From Mytilus edulis (lineage: Eukaryota), in contig NC_092349.1 in NCBI RefSeq assembly GCF_963676685.1, positions 75,970,473 through 76,034,472 on the forward strand: 64,000 bases of DNA, read 5' to 3'. Position numbers and translations under genes: made by a program. Numbering within the stretch: position 1 is the stretch's first letter; each line of letters begins with the position of its first letter. Under the pieces are notes generated by a model, which was not told where the DNA came from, did not search any database, and worked only from the letters and a program-made list of their open reading frames with translations. Shown piece by piece: positions 908 through 57,496 of this stretch.

Positions 908-1153
908 AACTTGAATCCAGATTCAGAAGGTTCCAGTAAGGAAGAAAGTAGTGATTATGATGATGATGATAAGGAGTGGGGTGATGATGATGATGAGGAG
1001 GAGGAGGAGGAGGAGGAGGAGGAGGCTGATGAGGAAAAGGAAGAGGAAATAGAAGAACTTTGTGATATGGAAGTAGCAGAAACTGATAGTGATGAAGAAG
1101 ACAAGAATGATGTTAGTAAAAATAATAGTACTGGGGAGTCATTTATATTCAGG
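908..1153 (+). CDS. Internal coding exon: poly-Asp/Glu acidic segment (SDYDDDDKEWGDDDDEEEEEEEEEE...).
   Basis: Open frame starts right after the acceptor tttatag (AG at 906-907). It ends at donor AGG|GTAATC (GT 1154-1155) in phase 0. A GAG/GAT trinucleotide run gives the coding microsatellite. Confidence 0.45.
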
Positions 1154-1289
1154 GTAATCACATTTTGCGGATTTTGTGAGAAATTAAACCATAATTTTTT
1201 AATGTTCAACGGATTGTAAATTATATTATTATTTGTCATGACAGAGAAATGCTATGTACATGACTTTTTGTTTACATACTTTCTTGTAG

Positions 1290-1399
1290 GAACCACTAGT
1301 AGGGGTTAAAAAACCTCATAGGTATACACCTGGAACTGTGGCTCTGAGGGAAATCAGACGTTATAAGAAAGATACAGATAGAGATACGGAGGACAGGAG
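1290..1399 (+). CDS. Exon encoding a histone H3 alphaN-helix-like segment ([23 protein letters not shown]), then non-histone sequence. The exon ends in phase 2.
   Basis: Acceptor ttcttgtag (AG 1288-1289) and donor AG|GTACAT (GT 1400-1401). The translation matches the H3 region [22 protein letters not shown] almost residue for residue. No histone-fold continuation follows. Confidence 0.45.
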
Positions 1400-2477
1400 G
1401 TACATGTATAAAACTACTAATTTTACTTCTTTTTATATCACTTCCTTTCCACACCAGTGTTGTTTTTGGTGCTATTAATAGAAGAGAATGTGGTGAATAT
1501 CCAAAACACGAAATCAGTACATGAACAGCATAAAACACAAAAAGCCTAATGGAAAAGGAACAGCACTTTCATTGCTGATCTTTTTGTCAAAGTCACTTTG
1601 AGGTCAAGCTTTGAATTCAACATGGGACACAAAATCTCAGTTAACTGCAAGTTTAAGACTGGCTCTATTTACTGGTTTCAGCAGAATTACTAAGATTTTT
1701 TTCAACCTGCTAGTGTGGTACTGTTAATTCAAATTCAGAAATTATTGCGTTGTCTTTATTATTTTGAAAAATGCGACAGGGTTATAATCGCAATAATTTA
1801 AACTCACATTTATTCATTTTTTAAAGCAATTGCTTTAATGCTGTGGCTTATGGCCATCTTTGTGACCCAGATCAAAAACTCCGCCTATAGTAAGCTAATT
1901 AAGGACATTAAGCAGATTCCTCGTGTAATTATTAAACACTGATTTATGTTTTCTAATGCAACACTTAGCTTGATACTGTTGAAAAGCATTAGTGGATTTG
2001 AAAAGTTTCAACATATGCTCTTGTATATGTATATTTGTTTTTGAGAGGACAAACGTTTTTCTATCATAGAAGATAAAAGTCTGCGCCAAAAAAGTGCATT
2101 TTTATACCTGCGTGAGATATTACAACAAAATATTGAATAATTTCAGATGTAGGTTTCAATATCAAAAATTGACTGAATTATCTCTTACACGGTTTGATGT
2201 TGTTCAGTTTGTGTTTCTCACTGGTAGAGGTCAAGTTACTCTTGTCAGAGACATACAATACAATTCTCTGCTCTTGTTCATTCATAAAATCATTATTCAT
2301 TCATAAATTTATCGTTAATAAATCACTACGCATGTTACAGTAATGCATAACGATGTTGAATGTCAATATAAAGCGAATGATTACCTGTACAATCTAAAAA
2401 AAGACAAACTGAACTGATCAACCTTGTTATTTTGTTTGCGCAAATAATTTTGTGGAAAGAGGCTAACCGGAATAATA

Positions 2478-2600
2478 ACAGTGTCCACTTAAGGGCATCC
2501 GATACAGTTTCAAGGGAGATAACTCTTGGCGCGACGTTAAGTGTTTGAATTCCCGCAAAACGTCAATTTTTGCGGGACGTAATGCGTGTAAATTTCCGTA
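2478..2600. repeat. Terminal block of a putative composite element. It is inverted relative to 6590-6640, sharing cttaagggcatccgatacag.
   Basis: The 20-bp core is seen in both orientations about 4.1 kb apart. The flanking GC-rich blocks (gcgcgacgttaag / gcgctaacgttgagg) are related. Confidence 0.3.
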
Positions 2601-3136
2601 ATAAGAAACGTAATGTGGAATTTCGATGCTCCAATTTCTGTTTCTCCCGCATGCTAACTTCTACGCCATTAATATAAGTGCATTTGATTCTAACAGGATA
2701 ACAGTCTAATAACATCATAAGAAATAAAACAAATTACTGTTTCTTTAAGATGTTCAACAAAATATCGTATAGTGAGATATTTTATTACAGCACAGGAAAC
2801 CAATGATATTTCAAAACTAATACCGAAAATGTAGGTACACACTGCTAATATAAACAATGAAACAACTTTTATAAAAGAACAAAGTTCTTATTTCTTCCAC
2901 GTTGCACGTATTTTATTTAACAAAAGGCAATAGCCAACAATATGTTTATACATCCGTAAAAATTTTGAGGGGACGTTTTATGGTATACAAATGCCCGCGT
3001 CCGTCTGTCCGTCGTAAACATGGTACAGCATATTATCCAAATTACATTAAACTAAACATGGTTCTTTTTTCAGTGAAGATGGTCAAACGATCTGTTTAAT
3101 TTTTGGTGAACTTTTTGAGTTACAGGACCTTGTAAC

Positions 3137-3486
3137 TAAAACAGAACAGGCTATTATTTGAACTTGGAATTATTTTTAATTATGGAATTTGCTTGATTTC
3201 TTGTTATTGATTTTTTTTATAAATTCCATGTTTATTCTGTACTGAAATGCTCTGTGCTGCGCACAACACTTTCTATTACAAAGAAAATACTGTATTTTCA
3301 ATAGAATGTACTGTGCCGCGCACAACACTATCTAACCAAAATACATTGTATGGAAAGTTTTATTAACCGCTCAAAAGATTATAATACCACATTAACATGG
3401 AATTTATTAAAAATTTTAAACACAAGAAATTATGCAAATTCCATAATTAAAAATAATTCCAAGTTCAAATAATAGCCTGTTACAGG
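3137..3486. mobile_element. Foldback/MITE-like element with ~60-bp terminal inverted repeats (aacaggctattatttgaacttggaattatttttaattatggaatttgc) and an internal direct repeat.
   Basis: 3137-3200 is the reverse complement of 3425-3486. The interior repeats gtactg..tgcgcacaacact(t/a)tcta twice. Confidence 0.7.
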
Positions 3487-3645
3487 TTTTTTTCACAGTT
3501 CGTGCTGTATCTCAAATACGATTTATGACTATAGCTTCAAAATTTACACACTTCTTAGTTATATTAATCTGAAGATCTGTATATACTTTTTGAGGATGAT
3601 TCAAAATTTGATTTTAGAGTTATTGAGTTTATGACAAAAAGAGGG

Positions 3646-4512
3646 TGTTTTCACATGTCGCATCGTATCTCAGAAACTATTATTGCGAACCCTATGATAG
3701 TTTTCCATAGATTCACCTGCAAGTTACCTGTCGATTTAAACTTTTGTAAGTTCTATTGTCCCATCTAACAAATACAACAGGTATTGTTCTCTGTTTAGTT
3801 TATTTGATGGGACCTTTAAATTTTTTCTAGGAGAAATATATCACTCATTGATTAATTTACCTGACCAAAAAATTATCTTCTTTTTTATTGAAATACTTCT
3901 ATAAACTCACATAAACTGTATGCAATATTGTATTTATTCAATATATCATTAATATATTTTCAATCTGTTCAATATAAAATCTGGTTTAATAATAAAAAGT
4001 TTATTTCAGACACATTTTTTAGTATTTTCCAATGAATTTGCATGTTTTTGTTGTTGTTCATTTATAGACTTATGTTTATGAAGACCTAGTTAATTTAGAA
4101 ATAATAATATTCAAATTTTTATTTATCAAACACACAAAAATATTGAATATTTGATCAGAAATCAACTTTTAATTTTTGAATCAGTATTAATATTGAACAC
4201 ATTAAAAACGAGTTATTGGTATTGAATAAATACAACACCACATGCAGTTTTCTGAGTCCTTACTTAGTATTGGTATAAGTATTTTTTCATCACTGACAGT
4301 TCAATTTTTTGTTCAGGTAAATTAATCAATGAGTGATAGATTTCTCTTGGAAGAAATTTAAAGGTCCCAGTGAATAAACTACACAGAGAACAATACCTGT
4401 TGTATTTGTTAGATGGGACAATAGAACTGCCAAAAGTTTTAAATCGACAGGTAACTTGCAGGTGAATCTATGGAAAACTATCATAGGGTTCGCAATAATA
4501 ATTATTGCATAA
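3646..4512. mobile_element. Large foldback element: ~210-bp inverted repeats (3646-3860 and 4300-4512) separated by an AT-rich spacer of about 440 bp.
   Basis: The string cacatgtcgcatcgtatctcagaaactattattgcgaaccctatgatagttttccatagattcacctgcaagttacctgtcgatttaaa... reappears reverse-complemented at 4300-4512. Confidence 0.8.
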
Positions 4513-5255
4513 AACTTCACATACTTTTTAGTTAAATTATTCTTATATCTGTATATTTTTATGTGATGATTCTTTAATTCATTTTTGAGTTCTTGAATTT
4601 TTATTGAGCTTCAATTTGGGGATCATATAAAACATGTTGTGATATACAAACTTCCTATTGAGCAAGAATAATGAATGAGTCAAGATATACTTAGCATGAC
4701 TTCCTGTACAACCCCCGTGTTATTTTAAAAACATGAGTTTTGTTTTTTTTATAAGACGACGGGCGTATCATGCGCTCGTAGCGCAGCTGTTTATTTTGTT
4801 CTTTATATTTTTTATAAATATATTAGAGAAATGACGGAATGACAGCAAATACAATGCAATTTCCTATATAATCATTATTTCTGAATGGCCTAACTCTTTT
4901 AAAGAATAGTTGATATGCACTGATTTTCGAACGTGTCCATACGATATCAGTTTTATAGAAAGTTAGCAAGAATTGTACACTTGAAAAATGTAATTAACCA
5001 GAAGGACCGGAAGGACAGACAGAGGAATGGACGTGCGATATTTTATGTACGCGCTATATGGTGAAAAAAATATATAGTTATTGACCAATAAAATTACGCA
5101 ATGAGAGAAGGATTTTAATCGCAACTAATCCAATCGTTTTTGCCAAATCAAAAAATTTAAAGTTATAGTTTCATTGTTTGGACAAAAGCATTCTTTAGCA
5201 AATTGAAGATTCTCCTTTATAAGATTTTGCTTTTGTTTTCTGACCACATAAAACA

Positions 5256-5455
5256 GAAGATGTGGTATAATTGCCAATGAGACAACTCTCAACAAGAGAC
5301 AAACATGACATAGAAATTAATAACTATAGGTCACCGTACGGTCTTCAACAATGAGCAAAGCCCATATCGCATAGTCAGCTATAAAAGGTCACGAAATGAC
5401 AATGTAAAACAATTCAAACGAGAAAAGTAACGGCCTAATTTATGTGCTGCAATTT
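5256..5455 (+). repeat. Family A SINE/MITE-like repeat, near full length.
   Basis: Contains the family A consensus gaagatgtggtataattgccaatgagacaactc...tataggtcaccgtacggtcttcaacaatgagcaaagccc...tagtcagctataaaagg..cgaaatgacaatgtaaaacaattcaaacgagaaaa.taacggcctaatttatgt. Confidence 0.8.
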
Positions 5456-5489
5456 ATGTACAAAAAAAGAAGTTCCATTTGCAGGATAA

Positions 5490-5640
5490 TGATGAGTTCA
5501 CACGTAATTCGAATTCGATTCGCATTAACTAATTCGAATTAGTTTAATTCGCATTCGAAATGTTTTACGTCCTAACGTAAATTCTAATTCGAATTGCAAT
5601 GCGCGTTAAATTTGATTTACTGTCCAAACGACGTTAACTT
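5490..5640. repeat. Cluster of short palindromic AATTCGAAT-type motifs (low-complexity palindrome cluster).
   Basis: Read directly: taattcgaattcgattcgcattaactaattcgaattagtttaattcgcattcgaaatg...attctaattcgaattgcaatgcgcg. Confidence 0.6.
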
Positions 5641-7507
5641 TTAATTAGTATCCACCAACAAAACCAGATTTCTCAGTGATTAAAACGTGAATAAAAGGAT
5701 TTTAAGGAATATTTGTAATGAAACAGCAGCCCACCAAACAAAACAAAAAAAAATCTAGAGGTCAACATACGGTATGAAATAATATACGAGTGTGTACAGT
5801 AAATGTACCTGTATGTCAAGTTCTAAATTGCGGAGTCTTTAATTTTAAAAGCCGTAAAATTAATTATCAACAGTCTGTAATAACTTTTTTAGATGTTTCT
5901 CACTTAAACCACAAACAGAGAGAGGTATTTGTTATTCAAATGATTTTATTTCCGGAAACAATATTACCAATTTATAGATAGTACTTTATAAGCAATATTT
6001 ATACATCTGAAAATGTCGCCGGTAATTTGCAGAGATAACGTCGAAATTGTCTGCCAACGACGTCGTGCACTTTAGCGCTAACGTTGAGGTTACAAAGGGG
6101 GGACGCAATTTTTAGGATAAATCGCGTTTATCATGGAATCAAGCACGGTGACCTATATTTTTTATTTGAGATTTGGAGAAAGCATGACAAAATGCAGTTT
6201 ATGCAGAAAAATGATAAAAATGACATTTTCAGAAACAGTTTCTTTCCCTTTTTTTAGGTTTAAAAAAATACCACTTTGAGCATCTGGTCCGCAATGTCAA
6301 GCAAGGCTTGAATAATTGTATAGTTATTCGTGTAGTGATTTATTTTTTTCCTTTTTGTCACTTATCACAGCTTCAGATTGAACCCGATCTTAATAATTTA
6401 CGATGAAAAATATCTGCTCCAAAAAATTGATAACGTTGCCTATTTTTTTACAAAATTGCACAAATCCCCAATTTTCAGCCTCAATTTTCTCGAAAAGAAG
6501 CACGGTGACCTATGTTTTATTTTGTGTTTTATTTTATAACTCGCCAAGGCCTACAACATATTACAAATTATAAAAATGACATTTTATCGAGAAACTGTAT
6601 CGGATGCCCTTAAGTCCATTGTTCTCAAGAGGAGTTAATGTAGCAAACTAAGTGAGTGAAATATTACGACCTAATTATTCAGATTAGAAAAAACCCTGTG
6701 TTATAACACATAATAATAAGTTTGTTTTCTGTAAGATTTATCGATCACCTTAATAATGAAATGGACCCGTCCATACGTGAAGTACAAGTAAAGAGGAAGA
6801 GATATTCACAAAAAATAATTTAGAATTATCTGGTCTCATAAATTAGGACACCAAAAAAGTTTGACGGATTTGGATATTAAATCTTATAATTCATGACAAA
6901 TGATGAAGCCGATATTATATCCTCGTATTTCCAGTGGACGAGTCTACTCCGTGTTTGAAATTGATCTTGTAAAGTCGTAGTCAGCCGTTGGGTGTCAGAA
7001 TAATCTTGGACAAGTAAAGTCGATGCTTTTGCAATTTTAGTTCGAGCTTGGAGATAATTATTTGCAACGTTCTTGAAAGTTGATAATATTAAAGCTCTAC
7101 TGTGATAGTCGAGTTTGTCATTTATTTATCTTGTTATAGATAGGATTTCAAGCTCCTGAAATACACCTTCATGTCTTTCCTAAATTCAAGGATTTGTTTA
7201 GTAAGATGCTTGCTAAATTGCATGACGATTGCACATATCAGCTTTATAGCTGAGCAATGATATTTGGGACTTAGATATAAGAAATAATGACAAAGTAGCA
7301 TTATAAAACAAAATGTTAGTAGGCCTAAATATATATATTAACTTGTTACATGTTTATGTCTTGTAAGTAAGATTTTTTGTGCCTTATATCTGACTGAGAC
7401 TACTATACAAGTATAGTAGTCTCAGCTTCTATGAAAAAATCCTAGTCTAAATACTTATGACGTCGTGCAAGGTTATTTTTTTCTGGAATGAATTGAGCTG
7501 AAATCGA

Positions 7508-7700
7508 AAGATGTGGTATGAGTGCCAATTATGAGACAACTCTCCATCCAAGTAACAATTTATAAAGTAACCATTATAAGTCAAGGCACGACTTTCAACA
7601 TGGAGCTATGGTTCACACCGAACAGCAAGCTATAAAGGACCCCAATATTACTAGTGTAAAACCTTTCAAACGAGAAAACCAACAGTCTAATCTATATTAA
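7508..7700 (+). repeat. Family A SINE/MITE-like repeat (diverged copy).
   Basis: gatgtggtatgagtgccaattatgagacaactctccatccaagt... is similar to the copies at 5256 and 57497. Confidence 0.75.
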
Positions 7701-8416
7701 AGCGAAAAATGAGAAACACTTCAACTGAATCATGGATATATTTAAATGAACAAAGATAAGTTAAAAATAATGACAATTATAATGCATTTTAAAGAAAAAG
7801 GAAGCTTGGAAATTATTTCCCAGTTGTATACACTCTTTACAAACTGCAGGGGATTGTATACTATTATGATTTCTTCATTGAGTTATTATCTTTCCTGTTT
7901 CTGCTCATATGTTTGTATCCACTGGTAAACATGCCACCTCCTTGGGAAATGTAAAACAATTTTAAAATGACTTTCTGTTGGATAAGTCTTTTATTGATAT
8001 ATAAAGTTAAAATATTCTTACTTCTAACTAGACAAGACACCTTTTAGGTGTATGCATGTGGATGAAAAAATGAAGTCTAAAAAATATTAACTTGGCAGCA
8101 ATTGCTTTAACATCCTTTAAGGCTTTGATTATATGATTGAAACAGGATTTTAAAAAATATCGCAAAAATTAAAATCGCATTTCAGTCTCAAATGACAAAA
8201 TCGCAATAATAAATGCACGCAATAATTTCTGAATTTACAGTATTGTTTTTATTACAGGCTTTTGATTTGGGACAGGCACATTAACTTGTTAGATGGCAAA
8301 CCCTCCCAGTAATCTGGGAAAGTCATTGAAAGTGGTGCGACAGCACAACACAAAATAAATATACAAAACAATGAACAAAAAAAAATATAAACAGCAAAAA
8401 ACAACACTGAGTATAT

Positions 8417-11020
8417 TTGTAGGACTCTAAAGTGCGATGGGGACGCTTAAATGCGATGGTCACGCTACAGTGCGATAGCCTACGCTAAAGTACGACGGTT
8501 TGATACGCTAAAGTGCGTTTTTCTGCAAATACATCGACGTTATAAACTTTCGACAGCATTATGACGAGAATGTTTGTCCAGATAAAGGATTTTTATTACA
8601 CGAGAAAAGAAAGAAGAGAAAAGAAAAACAAATGATCCCAATCTGGTTTTTTTGGTCGTTGCTGGAATAGGTTAACTTAATTTGTGAAACTGTAGAAATA
8701 ACTTTAATCAAAACATTTACTTATTAATTGAATTATTCAATACAAAAAAAATACTATACGGTTTGTTATTTCTGTTAAATAATAAATACTAGCATATGTC
8801 AATTAGACATCAACCTAACAAACCGATGTGTAGTATCATAATACTATATGATTGCCAATACGACAACTATCTATCTTCGACCTAATGGCATTGAAATATG
8901 CAACTTTAATTATGACCTTTAACACGGAGCATTGTCTTATAACATATTATTAGCTCACCTGTCCCGAAGGGACAAGTGAGCTTATGCCATCACTTGGCGT
9001 CCGTCGTCGTCCGTCGTCTGTCGTCGTCTGTCGTCTGTCGTCGTAAACTATTTCAAGAATCTTCTCCTCTGAAACTACTGGGCCAAATACTTTCAAACTT
9101 TAACTGAATGTTCCTTAGGGTATCTAATTTGTAAATTGTATTCGAAGTTTTGATCTATCAACAAACATGGTCGCCATTGCTAAAAATAGAACATAGGGGT
9201 CAAATGCAGTTTTTGGCTTATAACTCAAAAACCAAAGCATTTAGAGCAAATCTGACATAGGGTAATATTGTTTATCAGGTCAAGATCTATCTGCCCTGAA
9301 ATTTTCAGATGAATCAAACAACCCGTTGTTGGGTTGCTGCCCCTGAATTGATAATTTTAAGGAAATTTTGCTGTTTTTGTTTATTATCTTGAATATAATT
9401 ATAGATAGAAATAAACTGTAAACAGCAATAATGTTCAACAAAGTAAGATCTTCAATTAAGTCAATTTGACCAAAATTGTCAATTGACCCCTTAAGGAGTT
9501 ATTGCCCTATAAAGGCTTTTCACAATTTGTTCATCATGTTGACTTACTTTAAAAAATCTTCTCCTTTGAAACTGCTGTATCAATTTCAGCCAAACTTAGG
9601 CTAAATGAGTTTCAGAGTATCTAGTATAAATTTTATATTTTATTTCCTTATATGTCAAGAAACATAGATCCTATGGCTAAAATAGAACATAGGAGAAAAT
9701 GATTATTTTTTTTGGCTTTTGAAGAAAATAGGACGATCCAAAAAACATTTAAATAAATTGAAAAGCCAAAATAATCATTGATGAGAGATTTAACCAAAAG
9801 AATTAAGGTGAGCGATTCAGGCTCTTGAGAGCCTCTTGTTATATTAAAAAAGCGACTTCCACTACATTCCAGATGTACTAACATTATACTTCAGTGTAAC
9901 CATTACACCTTTTGAACAACTATCGTACTTTAAATAAACATAAGAAGATGTAGAATAAACTATCCATTCAATCCCAAATGCCGTTTATGTATGCGGCTAA
10001 TAATCATACGGCCGTCAACGTAAAGCATTGGTCCATGCCGCTACAAGCTATATAGGGTTATACAATGCCCAGTGTAAAACAATTCAAAAGATAAAGACTA
10101 CGGTTGACACATAATCAAAACAATAAACGAAAATGTAATAGGAACTCAGCAACAAACGAAAACCATTGCCTGAACCACATTCCCGTTACACCATCGGACT
10201 TTAGCGTGTCATACCATCGCACTTAAGGTAGCACTCCTCAGTTAGAAAATAAAATTAAAAATGAGCCCCAAAATGTTTTATCATTTCCTATTCCTGGATT
10301 TCTAATACATTAACCTTACTGTTTGTGTTGTACATGTGCATATGTATGTAATCAGTATCTTCCATAGATTTGATTTTCAAAAGTTAAAAGGGTGAAAGCT
10401 TAATTCCTTTTATGTGTATCCATGGCAACATTCTGCATTTATTTACCATAAAATATTGCAAAAAGGGGGGTGAACATGTCACATATCCCCCCAAAATTTG
10501 GATCAAACTAGAATTTCAATGCCTTTGAGTGATACCTTTTTAGAAACTGTTTTCATAAATCTTCCTAATGATCAAATAATAAATGGGTGTCTGGCGGCTC
10601 TGGCCCCTCATTTTTTCGTAAAATCCAATCACAAAGTTCGTGCGATAAAAATTTGGAAAATAACATTACAATAATTGCCAGACCAATGTATGGTATGGAC
10701 ATGCAAATACGGACTGTCATACAGAAAACAGCCTATATTACATACATTACATAACCTTGTTGTTCATATAAACCCAATACAAAGGCTATTTTAATACTCA
10801 GCTATCTAAAAATGAATTTTATTGCACACTAGCTCTCATATTTTAAAAATCCACAGGGACCAAAATGCGAAACTACACACCTAACTTTGGAGTGCTACCT
10901 AAGCATGATTTCTGATTGCACTTAAAAAACTAATAACCATCGCACTTTAGCATCTGACACCATCACACTTTAGCGTAGACCATTGTACTTTAGCGTGACC
11001 ATCGCACTTTAGAGTCCTAC
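8417..11020. mobile_element. TIR-bounded element about 2.6 kb long. Its ~100-bp terminal inverted repeats are made of 20-bp tandem subrepeats (ctaaagtgcgatgg...). A third, internal TIR copy sits at 10150-10232.
   Basis: Left end gtaggactctaaagtgcgatggggacgcttaaatgcgatggtcacgctacagtgcgat... (8417-8517). Right end 10940-11020 is its reverse complement and begins identically (gtaggactctaaagtgcgatgg). The interior carries family D and A-like repeats and no ORF. Confidence 0.7.
8950..9900 (+). repeat. Family D composite repeat (modules tcttctcct(c/t)tgaaac..., gtcaagatctatctgccctga, ttgggttgctgcccctgaattg, ctaaaatagaacatagg.. aatgcagttttt) with a (CCGTCGT)n microsatellite head.
   Basis: The same module order recurs at 60100-61195 and inside the 61200-64000 tandem units. 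The GTC-type simple repeat lies at 9000-9050. Confidence 0.7.
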
Positions 11021-11087
11021 ATATTTAAACCTTACAGATTAACCACAATTTCCACATGATTTTCAACTCCTGTATAATATTTTTCAG

Positions 11088-11178
11088 CAAGCTGGATGAC
11101 TTTGCAGGTGAATTTCCAAGTCTTATCCCGCCAGAAGTTACAATTGACGAGGAAAAGTTAAAACAGTGGGAGGCTGAG
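11088..11178 (+). CDS. Short coding exon (S)KLDDFAGEFPSLIPPEVTIDEEKLKQWEAE. It enters in phase 2 and leaves in phase 0.
   Basis: Acceptor tatttttcag (AG 11086-11087) and donor GAG|GTAAGA (GT 11179-11180). The entry phase matches exon 1290-1399 and the exit phase matches exon 12313. Confidence 0.55.
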
Positions 11179-11640
11179 GTAAGATACATTTATTCTTAAA
11201 CTCTATTCAGTAGCTTTATCAAAAGTTTTAACAAGAGTTTTTCTTTGCATTTTGAAAGCTTTCGTATGAGAAGAATTATAAAATTTAGATCATATGGTGA
11301 CCTGTATATTCATTGGGGCATGATAAAAACTTTTTTTTTCTTTTTTTCCAATTCCAGAAATATGGATATTCTTTCACAAAATAGTTGTAATTGTTTAATT
11401 GTTTGTGTGTTAGTTGAAAAATTACCGGTTGTTCATGGAAACATAATGCAGGATTTAATTCTTTATATAACAGTGACCATTATTTGTAACATGCAAATTA
11501 ATACATGTCAACCCCAAGTTTGACAGGGGTATAACAATACCTTACCTGGACTAACCCTGGTCTTCAGTAAAGTTTATTCTAAGATAGGGGTTTCCATTTC
11601 GTTGTGTGAGATGTATGATTATGCAGCTATGTATAAAAAA

Positions 11641-11812
11641 GAAGATGTGGTATGATTGCCAATGAGACAACTGCCCTCAAGAGACAAAATGACACAGAAA
11701 TTAACAACTGTAGGTCACTTTATGGCCTTCAACATTGAGCATTAAGCCCGTACCACATAGTCAGCTATAAAAGGCCTCGAAATGACAAATGTAAAACAAT
11801 TTAAACGTGTCT
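11641..11812 (+). repeat. Family A SINE/MITE-like repeat copy lying in the intron.
   Basis: gaagatgtggtatgattgccaatgagacaactgccctcaagagacaaaatgacacagaaattaacaactgtaggtcac.... Confidence 0.8.
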
Positions 11813-12312
11813 ATTTTTATTGAATTACATGTGTTGAAAGGTTGCAACACTATCTGCAAAAAACCTTTTTTTGCTTGTTACAGGCAAATATATTGTCATT
11901 ATAATCTCCAATTTCAAATCACAGCTGGAATTTCAAGCCCAACCGTAAGGCTTCATCCATGTCTGAAGACATTTGGTTTCAAAGAAAATTACTTCGAGTA
12001 CAATTGAATGGATCTCTATAATTAATGTGTTGTAAAACAGCACAGAAAAAAGCCTTAAATAACATAGACATTTAAAGAATAAAACCTTCATAAATTGAGT
12101 CTCAAAACAGCTATGTCCATTTTAATTGATTAAGTGATTTAAAATGGGGTCTGGTGTGACTTTTCAAATAGATGGGTTTTTTATTTTATTTTTTTATGTT
12201 TCTCCTTTTTTTTAATCTATGACATTGAATTAAAAACATTTGGAAAGTTGTTTATATTTACAAACCAGTCATAAATATTTATTGAAATAAATATCATTTT
12301 ACTTTTTTTCAG

Positions 12313-14208
12313 TTATATAGCAGTCACTGTGATTTACCTCCCTTGCCACCAGATGACAGTGATTTAGACAGCAATCTTTCTGTCAAAGAAACTGATGGTA
12401 AATATTACACTGCAGTCGCTGTAGACAGTAATGTGAATACAATTAACAAGTATTATGCTCCAGATTTTGACCCTTCATTTAAACTGAATGAGAAGTCTAA
12501 AACAGTACCATCTCAGTTAGTGGATATTCAACCTGATCCATTAAATGCATCTACATCTATGATGTATGAAGCAGAAAAGATAACAAGTACTCAACCTACA
12601 CTTCTGGACTACAATCCACATACAGCAGGTAGCCTAACTGGACCAAATCACTTACCACAACCTCTTAGCTATAGCCATGCTTTCTCTGGATATCAACCAA
12701 CATGGCCACATTATAGGCCAACATCACCATCTTACGAGCCTACAAGTCCTGCTATCCCAGAGTTTCAACCAACATGGCGAAGTTATAGTCCAAATAACTT
12801 ACCACAATCTTTAAGCTCTAGCCATGCTATCCCACAGTATCAACAGACATCACCAAGTTACAGTCCAACATTGCCAACCTACCAGCCAACAAGTCCCGCC
12901 TATTTTATAAAATCATCTCATTTTCTTAAGAATCTTGATGGGAATATGTCTCTCTATGATCCTATAACTAGAGCTATGAAGGAAACAGAGTTAAAATGTA
13001 ATGTTAGAGGATGGGGAGGAGGAAGAAGTGTTAGAGGAATAGGCAGAGGAAGAGGTGTTAGAGGAAGGACAGAAGAAGGTAGAGATGTAAGAGGAGGAGA
13101 AAGCTGGAGAGGCCAGGAATACACTGGTCAATGGCCAAGAGGTAATAGTCAGAGTGGCTGGAATCAGAAAGATGATATAAGAGGGATGGAAAGAAAAAAA
13201 GAGCAAAGAAGTCATAGAAGATTTGATGAACATTTAGATAAGAGGGAGTCTGATAAATCTAAATCTAGGAGTATATCACCTCCAAATAGTAGACGTAGAA
13301 GATCAGGAAAACAATTGCCTCCTTTCAGAAGAGCTAGCAGATCAAGCTCTTACAGGAGACCCAGTAGATCTAGAAGTAGATCTTACAGGAGGCCCAGTAG
13401 ATCTAGAAGTAGATCTTACAGAAGACCCAGTAGATCTAGAAGTAGATCTTACAGGAGACAAAGTAGATCTAGAAGTAGATCTTACAGGAGACCCAGTAGA
13501 TCAAGAAGTAGATCACATTACACCAGAAGAATGAGGAGATCAAGAAGTAGATTGCCAACTTATAAAAGATATAGTAGATCTAGGAGTAGATCAAGACATA
13601 ACAGAAGACATAAGCGAAGTTCTTCTAGATCATTAAGTAGGGAACGAGATAGAGATAAAGGAGAGGGTGGCAACATCAGTGCCAGTAGCCATGATAGGCA
13701 ACTTGAAAGGTCTAGAAGTAAACGATCAAGTCATGTGATATCCAGAAGAAGAAGATTTTCAGGGTCAAAAAGTAGGAGACGATCATCAAGCACAACCTCT
13801 TCAAGGTCAGGAAGGAGAAGTTCAAGATTAATGAGCAGAAGTTTATCAAGGTTAGACAGAAGTTCATCAAAGAAAAAATCGAGAAGGTCAGGAAACTTAA
13901 GTAAAGTGAAACAAGTGACTAGCAGAAGTACCTCAAGATCAATATCCAGAACAAGACAATCCAGACAATCAAGATGGTCTGAACTTTCACCTGCAAGATC
14001 CAATGAAATATGGAGTTCAAGATTGGAGATGTTGGCAAAATCTGATTATGATGGCTTTATGAAAGCAAAGAGAGATTTAGTTTCTTATGAAAGTACAAGT
14101 CCATCACCTTTTAAAGATAACATATCAAAACGTAGAACAGATGATGAGAGAAAACAGCAGGGACATCCCTACCTATCTTCTTATCAAGACATAACTGAAG
14201 GTAACTAG
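12313..14208 (+). CDS. Large exon of about 630 codons. It holds degenerate RNA polymerase II CTD-like heptads (YQPTWPH, YRPTSPS, YEPTSPA, YSPTLPT, YQPTSPA), an RGG-like block, and a long Arg/Ser (RS) domain with the tandem unit SRSRSRSYRRPSR. The product is an SR-related protein.
   Basis: The ORF in the six-frame track is 621 aa (12343-14208). It is open back to the acceptor ctttttttcag (AG 12311-12312). The stop is TAG at 14206-14208, overlapped by a possible donor AAG|GTAACT at 14201. The heptads and RS dipeptide runs were read directly. Confidence 0.75.
   Translation, partial: LYSSHCDLPPLPPDDSDLDSNLSVKETDGKYYTAVAVDSNVNTINKYYAPDFDPSFKLNEKSKTVPSQLVDIQPDPLNASTSMMYEAEKITSTQPTLLDYNPHTAGSLTGPNHLPQPLSYSHAFSGYQPTWPHYRPTSPSYEPTSPAIPEFQPTWRSYSPNNLPQSLSSSHAIPQYQQTSPSYSPTLPTYQPTSPAYFIKSSHFLKNLDGNMSLYDPITRAMKETELKCNVRGWGGGRSVRGIGRGRGVRGRTEEGRDVRGGESWRGQEYTGQWPRGNSQSGWNQKDDIRGMERKKEQRSHRRFDEHLDKRESDKSKSRSISPPNSRRRRSGKQLPPFRRASRSSSYRRPSRSRSRSYRRPSRSRSRSYRRPSRSRSRSYRRQSRSRSRSYRRPSRSRSRSHYTRRMRRSRSRLPTYKRYSRSRSRSRHNRRHKRSSSRSLSRERDRDKGEGGNISASSHDRQLERSRSKRSSHVISRRRRFSGSKSRRRSSSTTSSRSGRRSSRLMSRSLSRLDRSSSKKKSRRSGNLSKVKQVTSRSTSRSISRTRQSRQSRWSELSPARSNEIWSSRLEMLAKSDYDGFMKAKRDLVSYESTSPSPFKDNISKRRTDDERKQQGHPYLSSYQDITEGN
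13330..13545 (+). repeat. Coding minisatellite: 39-bp unit (agtagatctagaagtagatcttacaggagaccc), about 5 copies, encoding repeated SYRRPSRSRSRSY.
   Basis: Near-identical 39-mers lie in tandem inside the RS domain of the 12313-14208 exon. Confidence 0.8.
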
Positions 14209-14214
14209 TAAATA

Positions 14215-14460
14215 CAATTGAGAATGGAAATCCGGAATGTGTCAAAGAAACATCAAACCAGATCCAAGAGCAGAAAAAATCAGAAGGCCACCAATGGGTC
14301 TTCAATTCAGGGGGAAAAGCCTGCACCTAAAAATATGTATTAGTTGAATTTAGTTCAGTGATAATGAACGTCATACTAAACTCTAAAATATGAGGCGGGT
14401 TAAACATTCTTTTTAAGATCTTAACCCTCCTCCTGTACCTCTAGCCAATGTAGAAAAAAC
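14215..14460 (+). repeat. Family E interspersed repeat (aggccaccaatgggtcttcaat.cag...tagttcagtgataatg.acgtcatactaaactc). A second copy lies at 58320-58560.
   Basis: Shared blocks of 20 to 30 nt appear in the same order at both loci. Confidence 0.65.
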
Positions 14461-14809
14461 AAACACACAGCTATATGCACAGTAAAATTCAGTTTAAAAG
14501 ATGTCAGAATAGCTTCAATAGGTAACAAAAGAAACTAAACAAACTGACAATATTAATGATATATAAAATAACAAAGGACTACATTGTACTAGCAATTACT
14601 GACATGCCAGCTCCAGACCTTAATTAAACTGATTGAAAGATTATGTCTTCATCGTATGCATATCAAGCACAATCCCTCCCATTAGGGGTTTAATATCATA
14701 CCATCATAAAATATATGACAAAAACATAATCATGCCAACAACTGGTTTTAGAATACATGTGTTTATTCCATATTGACAAAACTTTCGTAGGTTTTTATAC
14801 ACCGGTTTA

Positions 14810-15440
14810 CAGGACGTTTTTTATACTGTTGTCCGTCTGTACGTCGTCAACATGTTGGACATTAACTCAAAAATGCTTTAATCAACTTGCGTAAAACTTT
14901 GGTGAAATGTATTTATCTATTGACGTGAGCTCCCTTTCGTTTTTTATAAATTTTAGATTTTACATTTTCAAGTTATGGGGTTTTATTCATTAAAAAAAGG
15001 GAGATTTTCCAGTTGTCAGACATTAACTCAAGAATGCTTTCACCAACTTGCCAGAAATTGTGGTGAATTGTTTATATTATCTATTGCATTGAGCTCCCTT
15101 TTGATTTTTATAGCTTTAAGATTGTACCTTTCCGAGTTACAGGGTTTTATTTATGAAAACAGAAGGGATTTTCCAGTTTTAGACAAAAACTCAAAACGGC
15201 TTTCAGCAGTTCTTTTGAAACTTTGGTGATTTGTTTATATCTATTGAACAACGCTCCCTTAAGAATTTTATACGTTTTACATTTATGAGTAATGGGGTTT
15301 TTATTCATTAAAAAGGGGGGGATTTTCCAGTTTTTGGACAATCAAAAATGCTGTCAGCCAGCCATTCTAATGAAACATTGGTGAATTGTTTATATCTATT
15401 GATTTAAGCTCCCTTTGGATTTTCATAAATTTCTAATATG
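14810..15440. repeat. Satellite-like tandem array: ~147-bp unit, about 4.3 copies (gggattttccagtt..agaca..aactcaa.aa.gcttt...ttggtga.ttgtttatat.tattg...gagctccctt).
   Basis: The periodicity is visible at 14996, 15166, 15315 (gggattttccagtt) and 14895, 15050, 15250, 15395 (gagctccctt). Confidence 0.7.
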
Positions 15441-16524
15441 ACATCGAGAAGTAATTGAACCTTATTTGTTTATAGTCTGACAACAAATTTACTTAGTATT
15501 GCGCAACAGCACAGTGTATTGCACAACAGCAAAAAATCTTTAATTGAATATAAATTCAATTCATATAACCAATTTCAAGTTCTTTGACTACATTTATTCA
15601 GAAACCTATAATATGTCAAATATTTAATTATAATCCAAATTCAGCCCCGTATCATGCTTGAGTATTGTGTCCATTTTTGCCGCAACTGTTCAGGGTTGGA
15701 CCTATGCAAGCATATTCAGCTGTGCTCATTGAAGCAGTTCATTCCATATTAGTGGGACTTTGAAAAAATAAGCATATTCACCTCGGGAAAAAGTATATTC
15801 ACCTCGCAAAACGTCACTTCAGTAAATGTTTTATTAGATGGGGATAGGGAAAACACTGGTAAAATAATTTTTCAGCAATAGTAAGATTATTTTGATGAAT
15901 TGCCATAAAATCTATTAATTTTATTAATTTGGTAGTCAAATATTTGCTCTTTGAGGTCTGTGTGATAGGAAAAAGAGGTAAACCCTAATCTCTAAAGCAC
16001 TAAATTATTTTGTCAAATCCTATAGATGAACTAATTGTACAATTAACTTTATTTTTAAGACACACCAAGGCACCTTTTGGAAAAGAGTAAAGTAAGTTTT
16101 TTGAATTTCATCTATGTATTTCCATTCTTAATTTTATGAGCACATTTAGCACACCAGATGATGAGTTCTTTATATACTGGATATTGAATATCCTTTTTAC
16201 TGGTATTTTAATTTCCATGAAAAGTAATTGTACTATATACATGTAATAATATTATCTGGAAACTTTAGTGCAGAAAGGTCACTTGTTGTGATGTTGTAAT
16301 ATAGTTTTATTTTGCATAATAGAACATACCCCCACAAAAATATAGATTCTTATATTTTGATTCTTGAGTTACAGTAAAAATCTAAATGCTTTTATATATT
16401 ATATAATCTGTCATTCTGGTCTAGAAATTTAAGACATAGTTTGGATGCAATGTAAAAACTTTCATTGCATCATGATTTTCTAAATTTAGATTTGGAGGCA
16501 TGAAGAAGTAGGAGAAATGCACAG

Positions 16525-16900
16525 TTGTCCTCCACCAATGGAGAAACATATCATTATAAAAGTAAGTAACAAAACGTCATGACAATAATCCTCCACCAAT
16601 GGAAAAACATATCATTATAAAAGTAAGTAACAAAACGTCATGACAATGACCAACAAATAAGTAACTTGTTAACAAGTTCAAACAATATAGCTAGCACAAA
16701 CCATGACCATTGTCAATAAAGTAAGTAACCTATCAATCTGTCCACACACTATAGCTAGCACAAACCATGACCATTGTCAATAAAGTAAGTAACCAATCAA
16801 ACTGTCCACACTTTATAGCTAGCACAATAAGGGATGCTTAAACTCTGACCATGGTCACAAAGGTAAGTAACAAGTCAACCTGTACATACACTATATAACT
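16525..16900. repeat. Two adjacent short tandem arrays (~61-62-bp units), each unit containing the motif aagtaagtaac.
   Basis: 16530-16590 is nearly identical to 16591-16650. The 16690-16870 array repeats agctagcacaa.ccatgaccattgtcaataaagtaagtaacc.atcaa.ctgtccacac. three times. Confidence 0.7.
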
Positions 16901-16907
16901 ATAGCAC

Positions 16908-17190
16908 TATGTTAAGGTGGTACCTAACACTTTAACTAAAATTAATTTGGCTCGTTTAATTTTCTTAAAATTTTGACAAAGTGTTTACTTTGACCCTTTG
17001 ACAAAAATATAAAAATTTCAAAAAATTTGAACCAACCAATTAATCAGAAAAATTACACTGGTAAAATAGCAGTTTGACAAACACTTATTTTGATCATTGA
17101 GAAGCTTAATATTCCCTCATGAACACAATGTCATTAAAACGTTCTGCTGATTTTACAGAGTTATCTCCCTGTAGTGTTAGGTACCACCTT
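16908..17190. mobile_element. MITE of about 283 bp with perfect 21-bp TIRs (gttaaggtggtacctaacact / agtgttaggtaccaccttaac).
   Basis: The TIRs are read directly at both ends. The interior is AT-rich with no ORF. Confidence 0.75.
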
Positions 17191-17965
17191 AAACCATCAC
17201 CATTGTCATGTAAGCAACAAACCTAATGACACACGTAAGCCAAAGACGCACAGTCTTCAGCAATAGACAGCTGTCTTTGAAATTCTCACAGTTGCTTTTG
17301 GGTTTTTTCTACCCAATAAACATATTCTATACACATTGACATGTTAATTTAATGCATTGTGTATCAATGCCTAATGGTAAAGCCTTTGCCTTTGGTCAAA
17401 TTTAGATATTGATGACTAAATCTCACAATAATGTATGTTTAAAAAAATCAAAATTATGAATACTCGTATACCTGTCGATTTTTTTTACAAATAAACATCT
17501 GTTTCATGTCATTTTTATGTTCCATGTAGATTTATAATACTTTTTAATTTTTCAATTCAAGAAGCCAAAAAGTTGCCTTTCATATCTTCTTCATGGCTGA
17601 TTAAATCTTTCTTGATAGATTTTTTTTTACAAGGCTGATAGTGCCTTCAAAATACAGAAAATAATTTGACAACTAGTTTTTTATTTGGTTTTTATTTTGA
17701 ACAAATTAAATCATTGGAATTTATGCATAAATTAACAACAAATTATTTCATGATGAGAAAAAAAAGAAGGAAAATAAGTGCCACCAAGTGTATATCCAAG
17801 AAAGGTTTGAATTCTGACTCTTTTAATAATACAAATAGTTCCGCTTGAATACTTTTCATTATTTTAAGGGAATGATTTTTTTTTAGCCAAATTCTTGCTG
17901 ACATCTGATCTTAGTACAATGTATTGAGAATTCTATTTTTCACTAACAATCTCCTTTTGTTTCAG

Positions 17966-18164
17966 CTTCAATCTTTAGGAATTGACAGTAATACTATAAA
18001 ATTCCACACAGTTACTATGGAGTCTGATAAATATATATGTGTCAGAGAAAACAACCAGCTGATCATATTTAACATAGATAATCCCAAACATCCATACAGA
18101 ACACCAGTACAGGCGGACTCCTGTATCGTCAATCCCAGAAAACAACATATTGTAGCAGTAAGAT
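17966..18164 (+). CDS. CLTC: Clathrin heavy chain exon (LQSLGIDSNTIKFHTVTMESDKYICVRENNQLIIFNIDNPKHPYRTPVQADSCIVNPRKQHIVAVR, ends phase 1).
   Basis: This matches the conserved clathrin heavy chain N-terminus [31 protein letters not shown]...[21 protein letters not shown]. Acceptor ttttgtttcag (AG 17964-17965) and donor AGAT|GTGAGT (GT 18165-18166). Confidence 0.85.
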
Positions 18165-18165
18165 G

Positions 18166-18512
18166 TGAGTTTTATTGCCCCATCTACAACAGTAGAGGGG
18201 CATTATGTTTTCTGGTCTGTGGGTCCATTCATTTATTAGTCCATCCTTCCATTCCTATATCGTACCGTCTGTCCCGCTTCAGGTTAAAGTATTTGGTCAA
18301 GGTATTTTTTTTAAGTTGAAGTCCAATCAGTCCAATCAACTTGAAACTTAGTACACATGTTCCCTATGATATGCTCTTTCTAATTTTAATATCAAATTAG
18401 AGTTTTAATCCCAATTTCACATTCCACTGAACAAAGTGTGAGTGGTGCATCTGTGTACTATGGACACATTCTTGTTAGATACAATAGATTACAATTTAAT
18501 GCCATGGTAAAA
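18166..18512 (+). mobile_element. Family C MITE copy: head ..gccccatctacaacagtagaggggcat, a (CCGT/CCAT)n-like core, then caggttaaagt.tttggtcaaggta...gtccaatcaacttgaaacttagtacacatgt...gtgtactatggacacattcttgtt. It is inserted directly after the clathrin exon donor.
   Basis: Other copies lie at 18757-18885 (partial), 20684-20862 (3' half), 33470-33592 (internally deleted) and 50118-50582 (with an internal duplication). Confidence 0.8.
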
Positions 18513-18756
18513 AAAGAAAAAAACAACCAAAGGCAAACAACACAGTACACAAATTACAACATAGTCCATCAGTTTTGCTGTTTCCTTTAAAGATTGAAAA
18601 AATACCAAGATGAATGTCAATTCCATGGTATATTTTCTCTTTAAGATCTTTAGACTATAAAGCTTTAAAATGTCCACACAATCATTCCCTTGTCAGAAGA
18701 TATCAGTTTAATTATCCCATGTACTCTACCGCTCTTCGTTACTATTCTAGTATATT

Positions 18757-18885
18757 TATTATGCCCCAATTATGGGCATTATGTTTTCTGGTCTGTGGGT
18801 CCATTTCTCCGTTCGTTCGTTCGTCCATCTGTCCATCCCTCCGTTCATCCCGCTTCAGGTTAAAGTTTTTGGTCAAGGTAGTTTT
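18757..18885 (+). repeat. Family C MITE, partial copy (tgccccaattatgggcat...(tccgttcgttcg)n...caggttaaagtttttggtcaaggtagttttt).
   Basis: Same head, simple-repeat core and following block as at 18166 and 50118. Confidence 0.7.
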
Positions 18886-20207
18886 TAATGAAGTTAAAGA
18901 ACACCTAAATGTCAAATAAACTTAATGCAATTTTTTCCCCTCCAATTGCAAGTTATTTCAAGCATAACTGTCAAGTTTTGTCTCAGTCAGAACTATAGTT
19001 TCAGAGAAAATCACTATAATGTAAGGCCATATCCTACGGCAATTTCAGTCCAATTTCTTCGAAAAATCCTAATTTCAGTGTATCATTATAAAATGCAGTG
19101 TTGACTAATATCTGATCATAAACTCATGATATATGCATTCAAACAATTAAATAGAATACAAAAGACAACTTTAAGATGATAAACAATTTTATTGCACCTT
19201 TTAGAGTTCATTTGAAGGTCTGTTTTGGTCTGTTTTGGTCCATTTTTCCTCCTTCCTTCCTTTTTCATCAAAACTTGATATCTTTTGTCTAAAAAATAAA
19301 ACAAATGGGATTATTTTCCCACAAAAATGAAATAAATGTAATGTTAAATCAATAATTAAAGTGTTTTAGCTGAAAGAACTGTCTCTATAAATGTTAACAG
19401 TCTACACGGAAGTTTCTATAAGCCCTTATGTGTAACTTGAGTTTTTGGTCTGTTCCCCTAGTGTGAGAAATAACGGTTCCCTTTCAGTCAAGCATTTATT
19501 GCTACTGGTATCAAAGTCTTTTTATTTACTCATAACAGTATATTTCTAATAGATTTACACAAAAAGTCCACTTTCTTGTATTTTACGTTAGAAAATGGGG
19601 AGAAAGAGTAATAAAAAAATACCTCAAAATGTTTTTAAAAAGGGTTATGTCCCTTGGAATGCTGGTACAAAAAATAATTAGTAAGAATTATAAAGTTTAA
19701 GTATGTGAGACTGGATTCTGATGTGTATAAATCCAGGACAAATAAGTGTTTAGATGAGTTATTGTCTGTGCAAAATGTAGACGGCACAATGGCAAATTGT
19801 TAACTTTTGCGGCCAAAACAAAACAAAAACATGATGATAGTTGATACATACTTTAATGCTGAAGTGTCATCTGCAGACCAATTCACATATAAGATTTTTC
19901 AACAGAATGCTCTTCAGAACATGGTTAACACTGAAATAAAAAATTCACATGTTGTATAAACAAAACAAAAACTGTAACTGTAAGGGTAATTTAAAATTTA
20001 ACACAGTAATCTAAATACAGCTTCGTCTGTCCACCCATTTGACTAAGAAAACACCTGTAAACCCCCATTTCAATGCAATTTTACCTCAAACGTACTTTCT
20101 GTGTCTAAATCCATTCCGAATAGTCCATGTTTACAATGTATGAACTGGTTTATTAATAACTTTTAAAAATGAAAGTACAATAGGGTCACGAGTGCACACT
20201 TAGTTTC

Positions 20208-20683
20208 CCTAAATAGGTGTAATACCACCATTGATTTTTCCCTATTAGTCTTTGTTAAATTGGCACTTTTAAAAAAATCGTATAGTATTTACCTTTATTT
20301 CAACCAAAGAAATACTTTGCATGTGTAAAGTTCAATCCTTTCCAGTGATACAGTGAAAATTTCACACTACATTTCATTGCATATAAGAAAGTAACCACCG
20401 CCGAGGGTAGACAACCCAATTTTTACACTGTTATTTACTGGTTACCTGCTTTGGTAACTATGTAACCTTAACGTTCCAAAATATTTTATAAGACCATCAA
20501 ATAAAAAAAGAATGATGCTTTCAGACACCCAACATACATATTTAAGACTCAGAAAAATTTAAGTGCATTGAAATGCAGGGTTAATTTTCTACAACTGTCA
20601 AATTCAAGGGAATATTTTTTTAGGCCTACTTTCGTATGCAACCGGATGTGACGTACCATGATTTGGTGGTATTACACCTAAAG
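20208..20683. mobile_element. Family F MITE (~476 bp) with perfect 15-bp TIRs (aggtgtaataccacc / ggtggtattacacct). A second copy lies at 57012-57472.
   Basis: The two copies align end to end, with a shared internal block ctacaactgtcaaattcaagggaatattttttt.g.cctactttcgtat.caaccggatgtgacgtaccatgatttggtggtattacacct. Confidence 0.8.
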
Positions 20684-20862
20684 TCCAATCAACTTGAAAC
20701 TTAGTACACATGTACCTTGTGATATGATCTTTCTAATTTTAATGCCAAATTAGAGATTTTCCCCTTTTTTTACGGTCCATTGAACATAGAATATGATATT
20801 GCAGATGGGGCATCTGTGTACTATGGACACGTTCTTGTTTTAGTATGATCTGAGATAGACTA
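20684..20862 (+). repeat. Family C MITE 3' half, directly adjoining the family F MITE (nested or adjacent insertion).
   Basis: aaagtccaatcaacttgaaacttagtacacatgtaccttgtgatatgatctttctaattttaatgccaaattagag...ggcatctgtgtactatggacacgttcttgtttt. Confidence 0.7.
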
Positions 20863-20978
20863 TCATAGATCCAATTTGCAATGGGTACATGTATCTTATA
20901 TTAATAAGTTTTTTGTCGAATTTATGCCAATTCTCATCAGATTTATATATATCATGTTTATATGAATTTTACATACAG

Positions 20979-21128
20979 GTGGCAAAACTATACAACTATA
21001 TGATTTACATAACAAGTTGAAGATAAAGGGATACCAGATGGAGGAAGATGTCAAGTTTTGGACCTGGATTTCTGATGATGCTGTTGCTATGGTGACAGAT
21101 AAATCAGTTTATTTGTATAATCATTCAG
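20979..21128 (+). CDS. CLTC: Clathrin heavy chain exon (CGKTIQLYDLHNKLKIKGYQMEEDVKFWTWISDDAVAMVTDKSVYLYNHS, phase 1 in and phase 1 out).
   Basis: Matches [51 protein letters not shown]. Acceptor acatacag (AG 20977-20978) and donor CAG|GTAGAC (GT 21129-21130). Confidence 0.85.
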
Positions 21129-21169
21129 GTAGACTGCTATGAAATTTTGCTAAATATTACATTAATTAT

Positions 21170-21480
21170 ACCCGCACTTCAAAAAAGTGGGGTATGCTGT
21201 ATTATCTCTGTCTGTCCATTCATTTGTCCATCTGTCAGTCCGTCCTTTCAATGAATATTTTTCGCACGCATCTTTCTCAGGAGCCACATTACAAGGATTT
21301 CTGAAATTGAGTTTCCCGGTTTATATAAGTCAACTTTTCCATGTGATGTGTTTTCAGATTCCTCACTCAACAACTTCCTGTTTACCAAATATTTGGGCGG
21401 GGGTATCATCAGTGAGCAGTAGCTTGCAGTTTCATTTGTTTAACAAGCACAGAGAGACATTATTCGATATGTAATTGAGA
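21170..21480. repeat. Intronic repeat related to family C (ctgtccattcatttgtccatctgtcagtccgtcc simple core).
   Basis: The core motif resembles the family C simple-repeat centre. The ORF at 21187-21474 here is not supported as coding. Confidence 0.4.
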
Positions 21481-57472: not shown

Positions 57473-57496
57473 AGATCTTTGTAACATAATAGATAT

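Follow-up and report, generated by a model that had tools for sequence, protein, structure and literature searches.

The locus studied here, a 64,000-nucleotide stretch of the Mytilus contig NC_092349.1 (the whole of which is referred to as the window), raises the question of whether a short exon that reads like a piece of histone H3 is genuinely translated and, if so, in what kind of protein it is embedded. Comparison with two other Mytilus assemblies establishes, as far as sequence can tell, that the H3-like segment belongs, as a genuine coding exon read in frame, to a Mytilus gene. That gene, by the same comparison, is a lineage-restricted patchwork in which an acidic exon, an H3 fragment, an exon with RNA polymerase II C-terminal domain (CTD)-like, RGG and RS parts, short linkers, a clathrin propeller and an orphan C-terminus are predicted to follow one another. 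The window as a whole is AT-rich eukaryotic DNA with about 32% GC.

The likeness to histone H3 can be delimited closely. A tblastn search of full-length H3 against the whole window returned one significant match, at 1302-1379 (22 of 26 residues identical, E = 1e-10), corresponding to residues 34-59 of the mature protein or 35-60 counting the initiator methionine, and over its core at 1302-1370 the match to H3 residues 34-56 is identical at 21 of 23 positions. The segment also matches solved H3 chains at residues 33-59 (E ~8e-7), retaining K36, K37, Y41, T45, R49, R52, R53 and K56 and carrying the substitutions R42T and Q55K. A first-pass annotation of this DNA had called exon 1290-1399 a near-verbatim copy of the H3 or CENP-A alphaN region, and the degree of identity bears this out and makes it clear that the fragment was captured from a real H3 gene. 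The same annotation had seen no histone fold following the exon, and none was found: the tblastn search over the window matched residues 34-59 only, and no Pfam histone domain (PF00125) was detected in the conceptual protein, in P0130 (= XP_076109027.1, introduced below) or in P0168. Since it has no histone fold, the H3-like protein cannot enter the nucleosome. The flanks of the H3 core within the same exon are not recognisable as H3. The H3-derived 78 nucleotides are identical in three Mytilus lineages, and the whole exon differs at 3 of 110 nucleotides between the window and the other two. In histone H3 itself, K36 methyltransferases make contact with the stretch K36-K56, as do chaperones and importins that bind alphaN.

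The identity of the gene was obtained from its largest exon, a low-complexity exon here numbered exon 4. A phmmer scan with exon 4 against 1.84 billion representative sequences gave a single strong match, XP_076109027.1 (E = 1.6e-244, 79% identity), listed in RefSeq as 'uncharacterized protein LOC143077023' of M. galloprovincialis and sharing one cluster with CAG2240014.1, an M. edulis protein automatically named 'CLTC'; the BLASTP or HMMER check recommended in the first-pass annotation was thereby answered. XP_076109027.1 carries homologues of exons 1-4 in the window order followed by the propeller, its H3-like 23 residues are identical to those of the window, and protein identity between the window copy and the two public Mytilus models ranges from 72% (exon 4) up to 100% (last exon). 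These comparisons identify the window as holding all but the 5' end of the predicted Mytilus orthologue, or divergent allele, of LOC143077023 / CAG2240014.1. Public annotation thus already contains the gene, listed once as uncharacterised and once under a 'CLTC' name that misleads; the public records of both Mytilus models do not describe the H3-like, CTD-like and RS parts, and literature searches found no account of the gene or of its H3-like content.

Outside one 50%-identity cluster exon 4 had no relative in the phmmer scan, JGI metagenome scans with the N-terminal part of exon 4 and with the last exon found none, and by exact look-up the open reading frame (ORF) of exon 4 is not on record. 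Word-indexed protein searches (exons 2-4; exons 3-4; exon 1) gave H3 proteins, two CTD-heptad matches, or nothing; as they overlooked two near-identical public Mytilus proteins that HMMER found, their negatives do not amount to absence. The reading of the locus as an unannotated orphan was dropped when the full HMMER scan found XP_076109027.1.

Exact mapping of XP_076109027.1 onto the M. galloprovincialis locus (L002) and of CAG2240014.1 onto the M. edulis locus (L003) yielded 18 coding exons, all GT-AG, in the former and 24 in the latter, where a single donor within the Q-rich 5' portion is GC and all other sites are GT-AG. Model exons 2-5 of L002 are the four exons of the first-pass annotation, and the phase-compatible chain it proposed (acidic, H3-like, 91-nucleotide and large exon) is the chain used by both gene models. 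Splice sites are kept in 17 of the 17 in-window equivalents of model exons (Table 1), which joined give 3954 nucleotides, that is 1317 codons with one terminal stop, and the gene reaches 59058, occupying about 58 kb of the window. Exons 1-4 as first proposed have canonical AG/GT boundaries and a joined coding sequence in frame; the ORF from 12313, with 632 codons, is the longest in the window, and dinucleotide shuffles matched the open length of exon 1 or of exon 4 in 0 of 500 trials each. The open lengths of exons 2 and 3 are not significant on their own against such shuffles, these exons being too short. Only together do exon 2 (110 nucleotides) and exon 3 (91 nucleotides) uphold the frame, and because of this the H3-like exon cannot be skipped singly and any product translated across the acidic exon and exon 4 has to include the H3-like peptide.

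Two of the earlier boundaries had to be moved. The acidic exon, drawn at first to 1153, ends in both models at the equivalent of window position 1111 (AATGAT/gttagt); the donor at 1153 is conserved too and likewise leaves phase 0, and may be an alternative splice site of this exon. The large exon, taken to close the gene at 14208, has its donor at 14200; in both gene models the TAG at 14206-14208 falls within the intron, and the ORF runs on through 13 further exons to 59058. Splicing of exon 4 straight to the first propeller exon was ruled out by phase, two small linker exons connecting them, and what had looked like an early stop at the 16490 acceptor vanished once the 32-nucleotide exon 16060-16091 had been placed. 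In exon 16490-16561 the annotated frame is the sole stop-free frame. A 61-nucleotide tandem duplication at 16528-16647 (copies 98% identical) repeats the 3' end and donor of this exon, adding a second potential donor.

The CTD-heptad and RS features that had been noted in exon 4 are real, comprising five heptads, an RGG stretch and a 235-residue RS region. The latter holds 74 RS/SR dipeptides, with 83% R+S in its densest 60-residue stretch, and is an RS domain in the sense of at least 50 residues rich in such dipeptides. The heptad stretch gave weak phmmer matches (E = 1e-9 to 1e-3), PF05001 scored 18.6 and 13.9 bits, under the 20.3 cut-off, and no Pfam domain was found in the part of the protein encoded by exons 1-4. 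The heptads do not constitute an Rpb1 CTD, which is a long YSPTSPS array on Rpb1 catalytic domains, no Rpb1 domains being present. Nor could the locus be upheld as the SR-protein gene that had been suggested: Pfam scans of the window protein, P0130 and P0168 found no RRM, as a classical SR (SRSF) protein would have, and the protein continues into a clathrin terminal-domain propeller.

Residues 866-1184 of XP_076109027.1 align with clathrin heavy-chain terminal-domain residues 11-334 of solved structures (E = 7e-85), the propeller is about 44% identical to human clathrin heavy chain residues 6-368, and Pfam Clathrin_propel scores above its cut-off, in keeping with a seven-blade terminal domain. 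CHCR leg repeats (PF00637) had no match in P0130 or P0168, and with no leg repeats and no trimerisation region the gene product cannot form triskelia. Window allele and M. galloprovincialis alike keep the W-box site residues. T87, Q89, K96 and K98, the clathrin-box binding-site residues of clathrin heavy chain, are kept in the window allele (exon 20979-21128), and M. galloprovincialis has L89/N96/E98. For the approximately 200 residues after the propeller a Pfam scan of the C-terminal 218 residues gave no match, and a single-sequence AlphaFold2 model of the last exon (pLDDT 47) was too poor for use.

The pattern of divergence bears on whether these exons are translated. Exon 4 is open in the three lineages (641/701/688 codons) with the same donor context, and its comparison with M. 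galloprovincialis gives a synonymous divergence (dS) of 0.21 and a non-synonymous divergence (dN) of 0.11, with omega 0.55 and about 14 indels, all in frame. The dN/dS ratio is 0.24 in the propeller and 0.36 in the C-terminal part, and 6-nucleotide in-frame deletions occur in exon 16060-16091 (32 vs 38 nucleotides) and exon 22647-22759 (113 vs 119 nucleotides in M. galloprovincialis). Such divergence is what translation together with moderate purifying selection leaves behind, and not what a pseudogene would show. Against M. galloprovincialis the acidic exon 908-1111 shows 16 non-synonymous changes and 1 synonymous change at unchanged length, changes that probably come from turnover of (GAG)n/(GAT)n repeats and not from point substitution.

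H3-derived sequence is also found upstream of the window, in the M. edulis model. Its modules A, B and C (Table 1) match H3 at E = 1e-6 to 1e-7, the three matches spanning H3 2-29, 11-35 and 20-35, degenerate 'PRKSAP' and 'TAGKSTG' motifs occur as well in its N-terminal part, and module C closes the exon that is spliced onto the acidic exon. The resulting order in M. edulis, H3 residues 3-35, then 68 acidic residues, then H3 residues 34-58, therefore reads as a nearly complete H3 N-terminus broken up by a cassette exon of phase 0/0, and the acidic exon can no longer be regarded as the start of the H3-like part, since the M. edulis model has further H3-tail exons upstream of it. In their core LATKAARKS, modules B and C differ at 4 synonymous and 0 non-synonymous sites (pS 0.63), which would fit either preservation of this core since an old duplication in situ or an origin of B and C from different H3 genes. 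The neighbour upstream (L002 1-8379, L003 1-1891) belongs to the PARP/VIT/VWA type (PARP4-like), and its product bears a ubiquitin-like domain at the C-terminus. In the M. edulis model, module A and the 'PRKSAP'/'TAGKSTG' exons form part of the H3-like gene, and all of them keep a 'KS' dipeptide. The two annotation pipelines split the upstream region at different places, and the 5' structure is possibly one very large gene.

Taken together, the explanation that we consider probable is that of a Mytilus orthologue or allele of a patchwork gene. As to origin, we infer exon shuffling in which fragments were captured from H3 and from the 5' portion of CLTC, the captured pieces being joined via mostly phase-0 exons and the low-complexity parts then growing fast by repeat expansion. 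As to mechanism, the RS region would direct the product into the nucleus or its speckles, where the H3-tail/alphaN-like peptides would act as non-nucleosomal histone-tail surrogates, that is as substrates, decoys or docking sites; possible partners are K36 writers, or alphaN-binding chaperones and importins, and the propeller would bind short linear motifs in partner proteins. This nuclear mechanism, with its RS targeting, H3-like peptides and propeller binding, is put forward tentatively, as less likely than not.

Several observations weigh against this explanation. The two supporting models, from M. galloprovincialis and M. edulis, are both computational predictions, and the histone-mimic mechanism is one that we infer purely from sequence. 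The neighbourhood of the H3-derived 78 nucleotides is about 3% diverged, such that about 2.6 differences would be expected there; zero are seen, a result that gives no power to detect selection. As exon 4 is without relatives beyond one 50%-identity cluster, the gene is possibly young and weakly constrained. The reading of an interrupted H3 N-terminus comes from a single M. edulis model: the M. galloprovincialis locus lacks the exon with modules B and C, LOC143077023 starts in RefSeq at a 30-nucleotide exon (MTGDTHQTGC) just upstream of the window, and RefSeq counts module A and the 'PRKSAP'/'TAGKSTG' exons as the 3' end of the adjacent PARP/VIT/VWA/ubiquitin gene. Further, a product consisting of the propeller only could be made from an in-frame ATG (MEKHIIIK) that lies in the last linker exon.

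Some of these points lend themselves to another view, in which part of an H3 (retro)copy became an exon within a fast-evolving disordered region and is kept only for frame, as a passenger whose resemblance to H3 is functionless. Such a history is possible, although in our judgement somewhat improbable. It agrees with the low complexity and speed of the region (the omega and many indels of exon 4, the 16-to-1 ratio in the acidic exon), with the lack of power in 78 H3-derived nucleotides to reveal constraint, with the confinement of the gene to one cluster, and with the dispensability of the B and C exon in M. galloprovincialis. However, a neutral relic should decay evenly, and here 21 of 23 residues survive between two flanks that are unrecognisable; moreover, several separate H3-tail copies are kept in one gene, and most of the differences between B and C are synonymous.

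A second alternative concerns the gene models themselves, which could have merged two genes: one for the disordered region, read on into the intron and ending at the TAG at 14206-14208 as in the first-pass annotation, and one for the propeller starting near 16490-16561 at the MEKHIIIK methionine, unless both forms exist as isoforms. A stop codon lies two codons past the exon-4 donor in all three lineages, the in-frame ATG falls where the start of clathrin heavy chain would, and the pipelines' disagreement over upstream gene splits also speaks for over-merging. Both pipelines nevertheless link exon 4 to the propeller via the same two small exons, whose splice sites remain strong and whose frame is open in the annotated phase only, and the sole length change, from 38 to 32 nucleotides, is in frame and re-forms the donor. 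We regard the merging of separate genes as unlikely.

More unlikely still is an extended form of the surrogate idea, in which copies of the H3 N-terminus (covering K4, K9/S10, K27/S28, K36 and alphaN) would be carried on an RS/CTD-like nuclear scaffold with a peptide-binding propeller, making up a poly-H3-tail protein that serves as a soluble multivalent decoy or as a platform of substrates, either titrating histone-tail enzymes or concentrating them. It may involve continuity with the upstream PARP4-like-ubiquitin gene, which the M. edulis model half suggests, and candidates would be K36 methyltransferases able to bind the Pol II CTD as well and, at the retained 'KS' motifs, PARP-type serine ADP-ribosylation. 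Least credible, and in our opinion very improbable, is an untranscribed pseudogene remnant with exons 1-3 non-coding and their phases matching by chance, for which it may be said that exons 2 and 3 alone are no longer than ORFs of shuffled sequence, and against which stand the identical canonical exon boundaries used in two other assemblies, the 135 stop-free codons of exons 1-3 that enter a constrained ORF in frame, and the absence of the rest of H3, unlike in a simple decaying pseudogene.

When the patchwork gene preferred here is set beside known systems, its product is not an H3 (no fold), not a classical SR protein (no RRM) and not a clathrin heavy chain (no legs). With histone H3 it has residues 34-56 in common; here, however, an acidic exon divides the H3 sequence, which is set in a protein of approximately 1,400 to more than 2,000 residues. 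A complete propeller is shared with clathrin heavy chain, yet unlike CLTC the protein has a 790-residue disordered N-terminal extension and no legs. The long RS region recalls SRRM1/2 and the SCAFs, from which the product differs by having no RRM, PWI or CID and an RS array that is a young 33-nucleotide tandem repeat.

Related in principle are the histone mimics, among them influenza NS1 with ARSK, SARS-CoV-2 ORF8 with ARKS, the automethylation motifs of G9a/SETDB1, EZHIP, PAF15 and LIG1. To our knowledge, the known mimics are motifs of about 4-10 residues that have arisen by convergence. One published account treats histone mimicry as the imitation of histone regions by short linear motifs (PMC11738798). 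The Mytilus product resembles the mimics in being a non-histone protein with an H3-tail-like sequence, known here from sequence resemblance, and departs from them in that its segments are 23-40 residues long, are homologous to H3, exist as several copies and extend to the structured alphaN helix. A host gene appears, then, to have taken up long homologous H3 tail/alphaN stretches and kept them in frame, as multiple copies in the case of M. edulis, in a non-histone protein that combines them with Pol II-CTD-like heptads, an RS domain and a clathrin propeller. If expressed, it would be a natural experiment on the role of the histone tail off the nucleosome and a clear case of a new gene built by exon shuffling from housekeeping genes; if not functional, it is all the same a well-documented exonised histone fragment. 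The architecture is surprising and its comparative support sound, and its taxonomic range appears narrow. The Mytilus genome is known for gene presence/absence variation.

Table 1 Predicted exons and sequence features of the H3-like Mytilus gene, with H3-tail modules of the M. edulis model that lie off the window
Feature	Position in window	Strand	Description
Acidic exon	908-1111	+	68 codons, 60% D/E, phase 0/0; = L002 11037-11240, L003 15229-15432
H3-like exon	1290-1399	+	110 nt, phase 0 in, phase 2 out; H3-derived 1302-1379, core 1302-1370
Intron	1400-11087	+	9.7 kb; orthologous intron ~1.7 kb
91-nt exon (SKLDDFAGEFPSLIPPEVTIDEEKLKQWEAE)	11088-11178	+	returns chain to phase 0
Large low-complexity exon (exon 4)	12313-14200	+	629 codons + 1 base; donor CTGAAG/gtaact
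CTD-like heptads	12712-12753, 12838-12900	+	five units (2 + 3), Y-x-P-T-S/L-P-x
RGG stretch	~13000-13113	+	in exon 4
RS region	13264-13968	+	235 residues, 64% R+S
33-nt x5 tandem array	13348-13514	+	within RS region
Linker exon DTPRHLLEKSK	16060-16091	+	32 nt vs 38 nt in M. galloprovincialis; donor re-formed
Linker exon (IWRHEEVGEMHSCPPPMEKHIIIK)	16490-16561	+	72 nt; 3' end aligns with clathrin heavy chain start
Propeller exons	17966-18164, 20979-21128, 22647-22759, 23443-23604, 24459-24566, 24891-25058	+	clathrin terminal domain
C-terminal exons	26837-26941, 55394-55433, 56085-56173, 57728-57827, 58736-59058 (with stop)	+	orphan region ~200 residues
Module A			M. edulis RKKQSARKSTGGKCPRIQ...; H3 residues 2-29
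Module B			M. edulis SGGKGSGKLLATKAARKSDPSTGDV; H3 residues 11-35
Module C			M. edulis TKRTRRKGF..HLATKAARKSAPETGGV; H3 residues 3-35

The public Mytilus models have the same exon order, splice sites and domain series as the window copy, which differs from them in a strongly diverged central block, shorter repeat arrays, a 9.7-kb intron in place of one of 1.7 kb, and a 27-kb intronic insertion. The central block 11725-27165, running from exon 4 through the propeller with introns included, is about 82-86% identical to both references (dS 0.14-0.21), and the flanks 289-1823, 8129-8417, 11021-11729 and 54899-59489 are 93-98% identical (dS 0.03-0.06), the protein of the last exon being 100% identical to that of M. 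edulis. A deep haplotype, introgression or paralogue conversion is possible as the source of the diverged block.

In the long intron behind the H3-like exon, 1823-8129 and 8417-11021 (about 8.9 kb of the 9.7 kb) are window-specific insertions with no counterpart in either reference locus, the orthologous intron being about 1.7 kb in both the M. galloprovincialis and M. edulis models. These insertions bear short repeats, dispersed as well as inverted, of which the window has further copies at other places, and no transposase-like ORF was recognised among the intron ORFs of at least 60 residues; the earlier description of an intron filled with transposons is therefore broadly right where non-autonomous elements are meant. 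The intron 26942-55393 holds the 27-kb window-specific insertion (27165-54149), missing from both reference loci, with a DUF7869 ORF at 30102-30851 on the minus strand and a 218-residue ORF at 46858-47514, whose cluster also contains M. edulis CAG2212293 and M. coruscus CAC5396504 and which is probably transposon cargo. The cluster of this ORF places the window in Mytilus, and an ENA contig matches the window at 99.4%. A short repeat at 791-906 stops 1 nucleotide before the acidic-exon acceptor and has copies at 5248-5445, 11632-11807 and 46245-46306, and the repeat 14211-14769 begins 11 nucleotides past the exon-4 donor and has an opposite-strand copy at 28813-29459.

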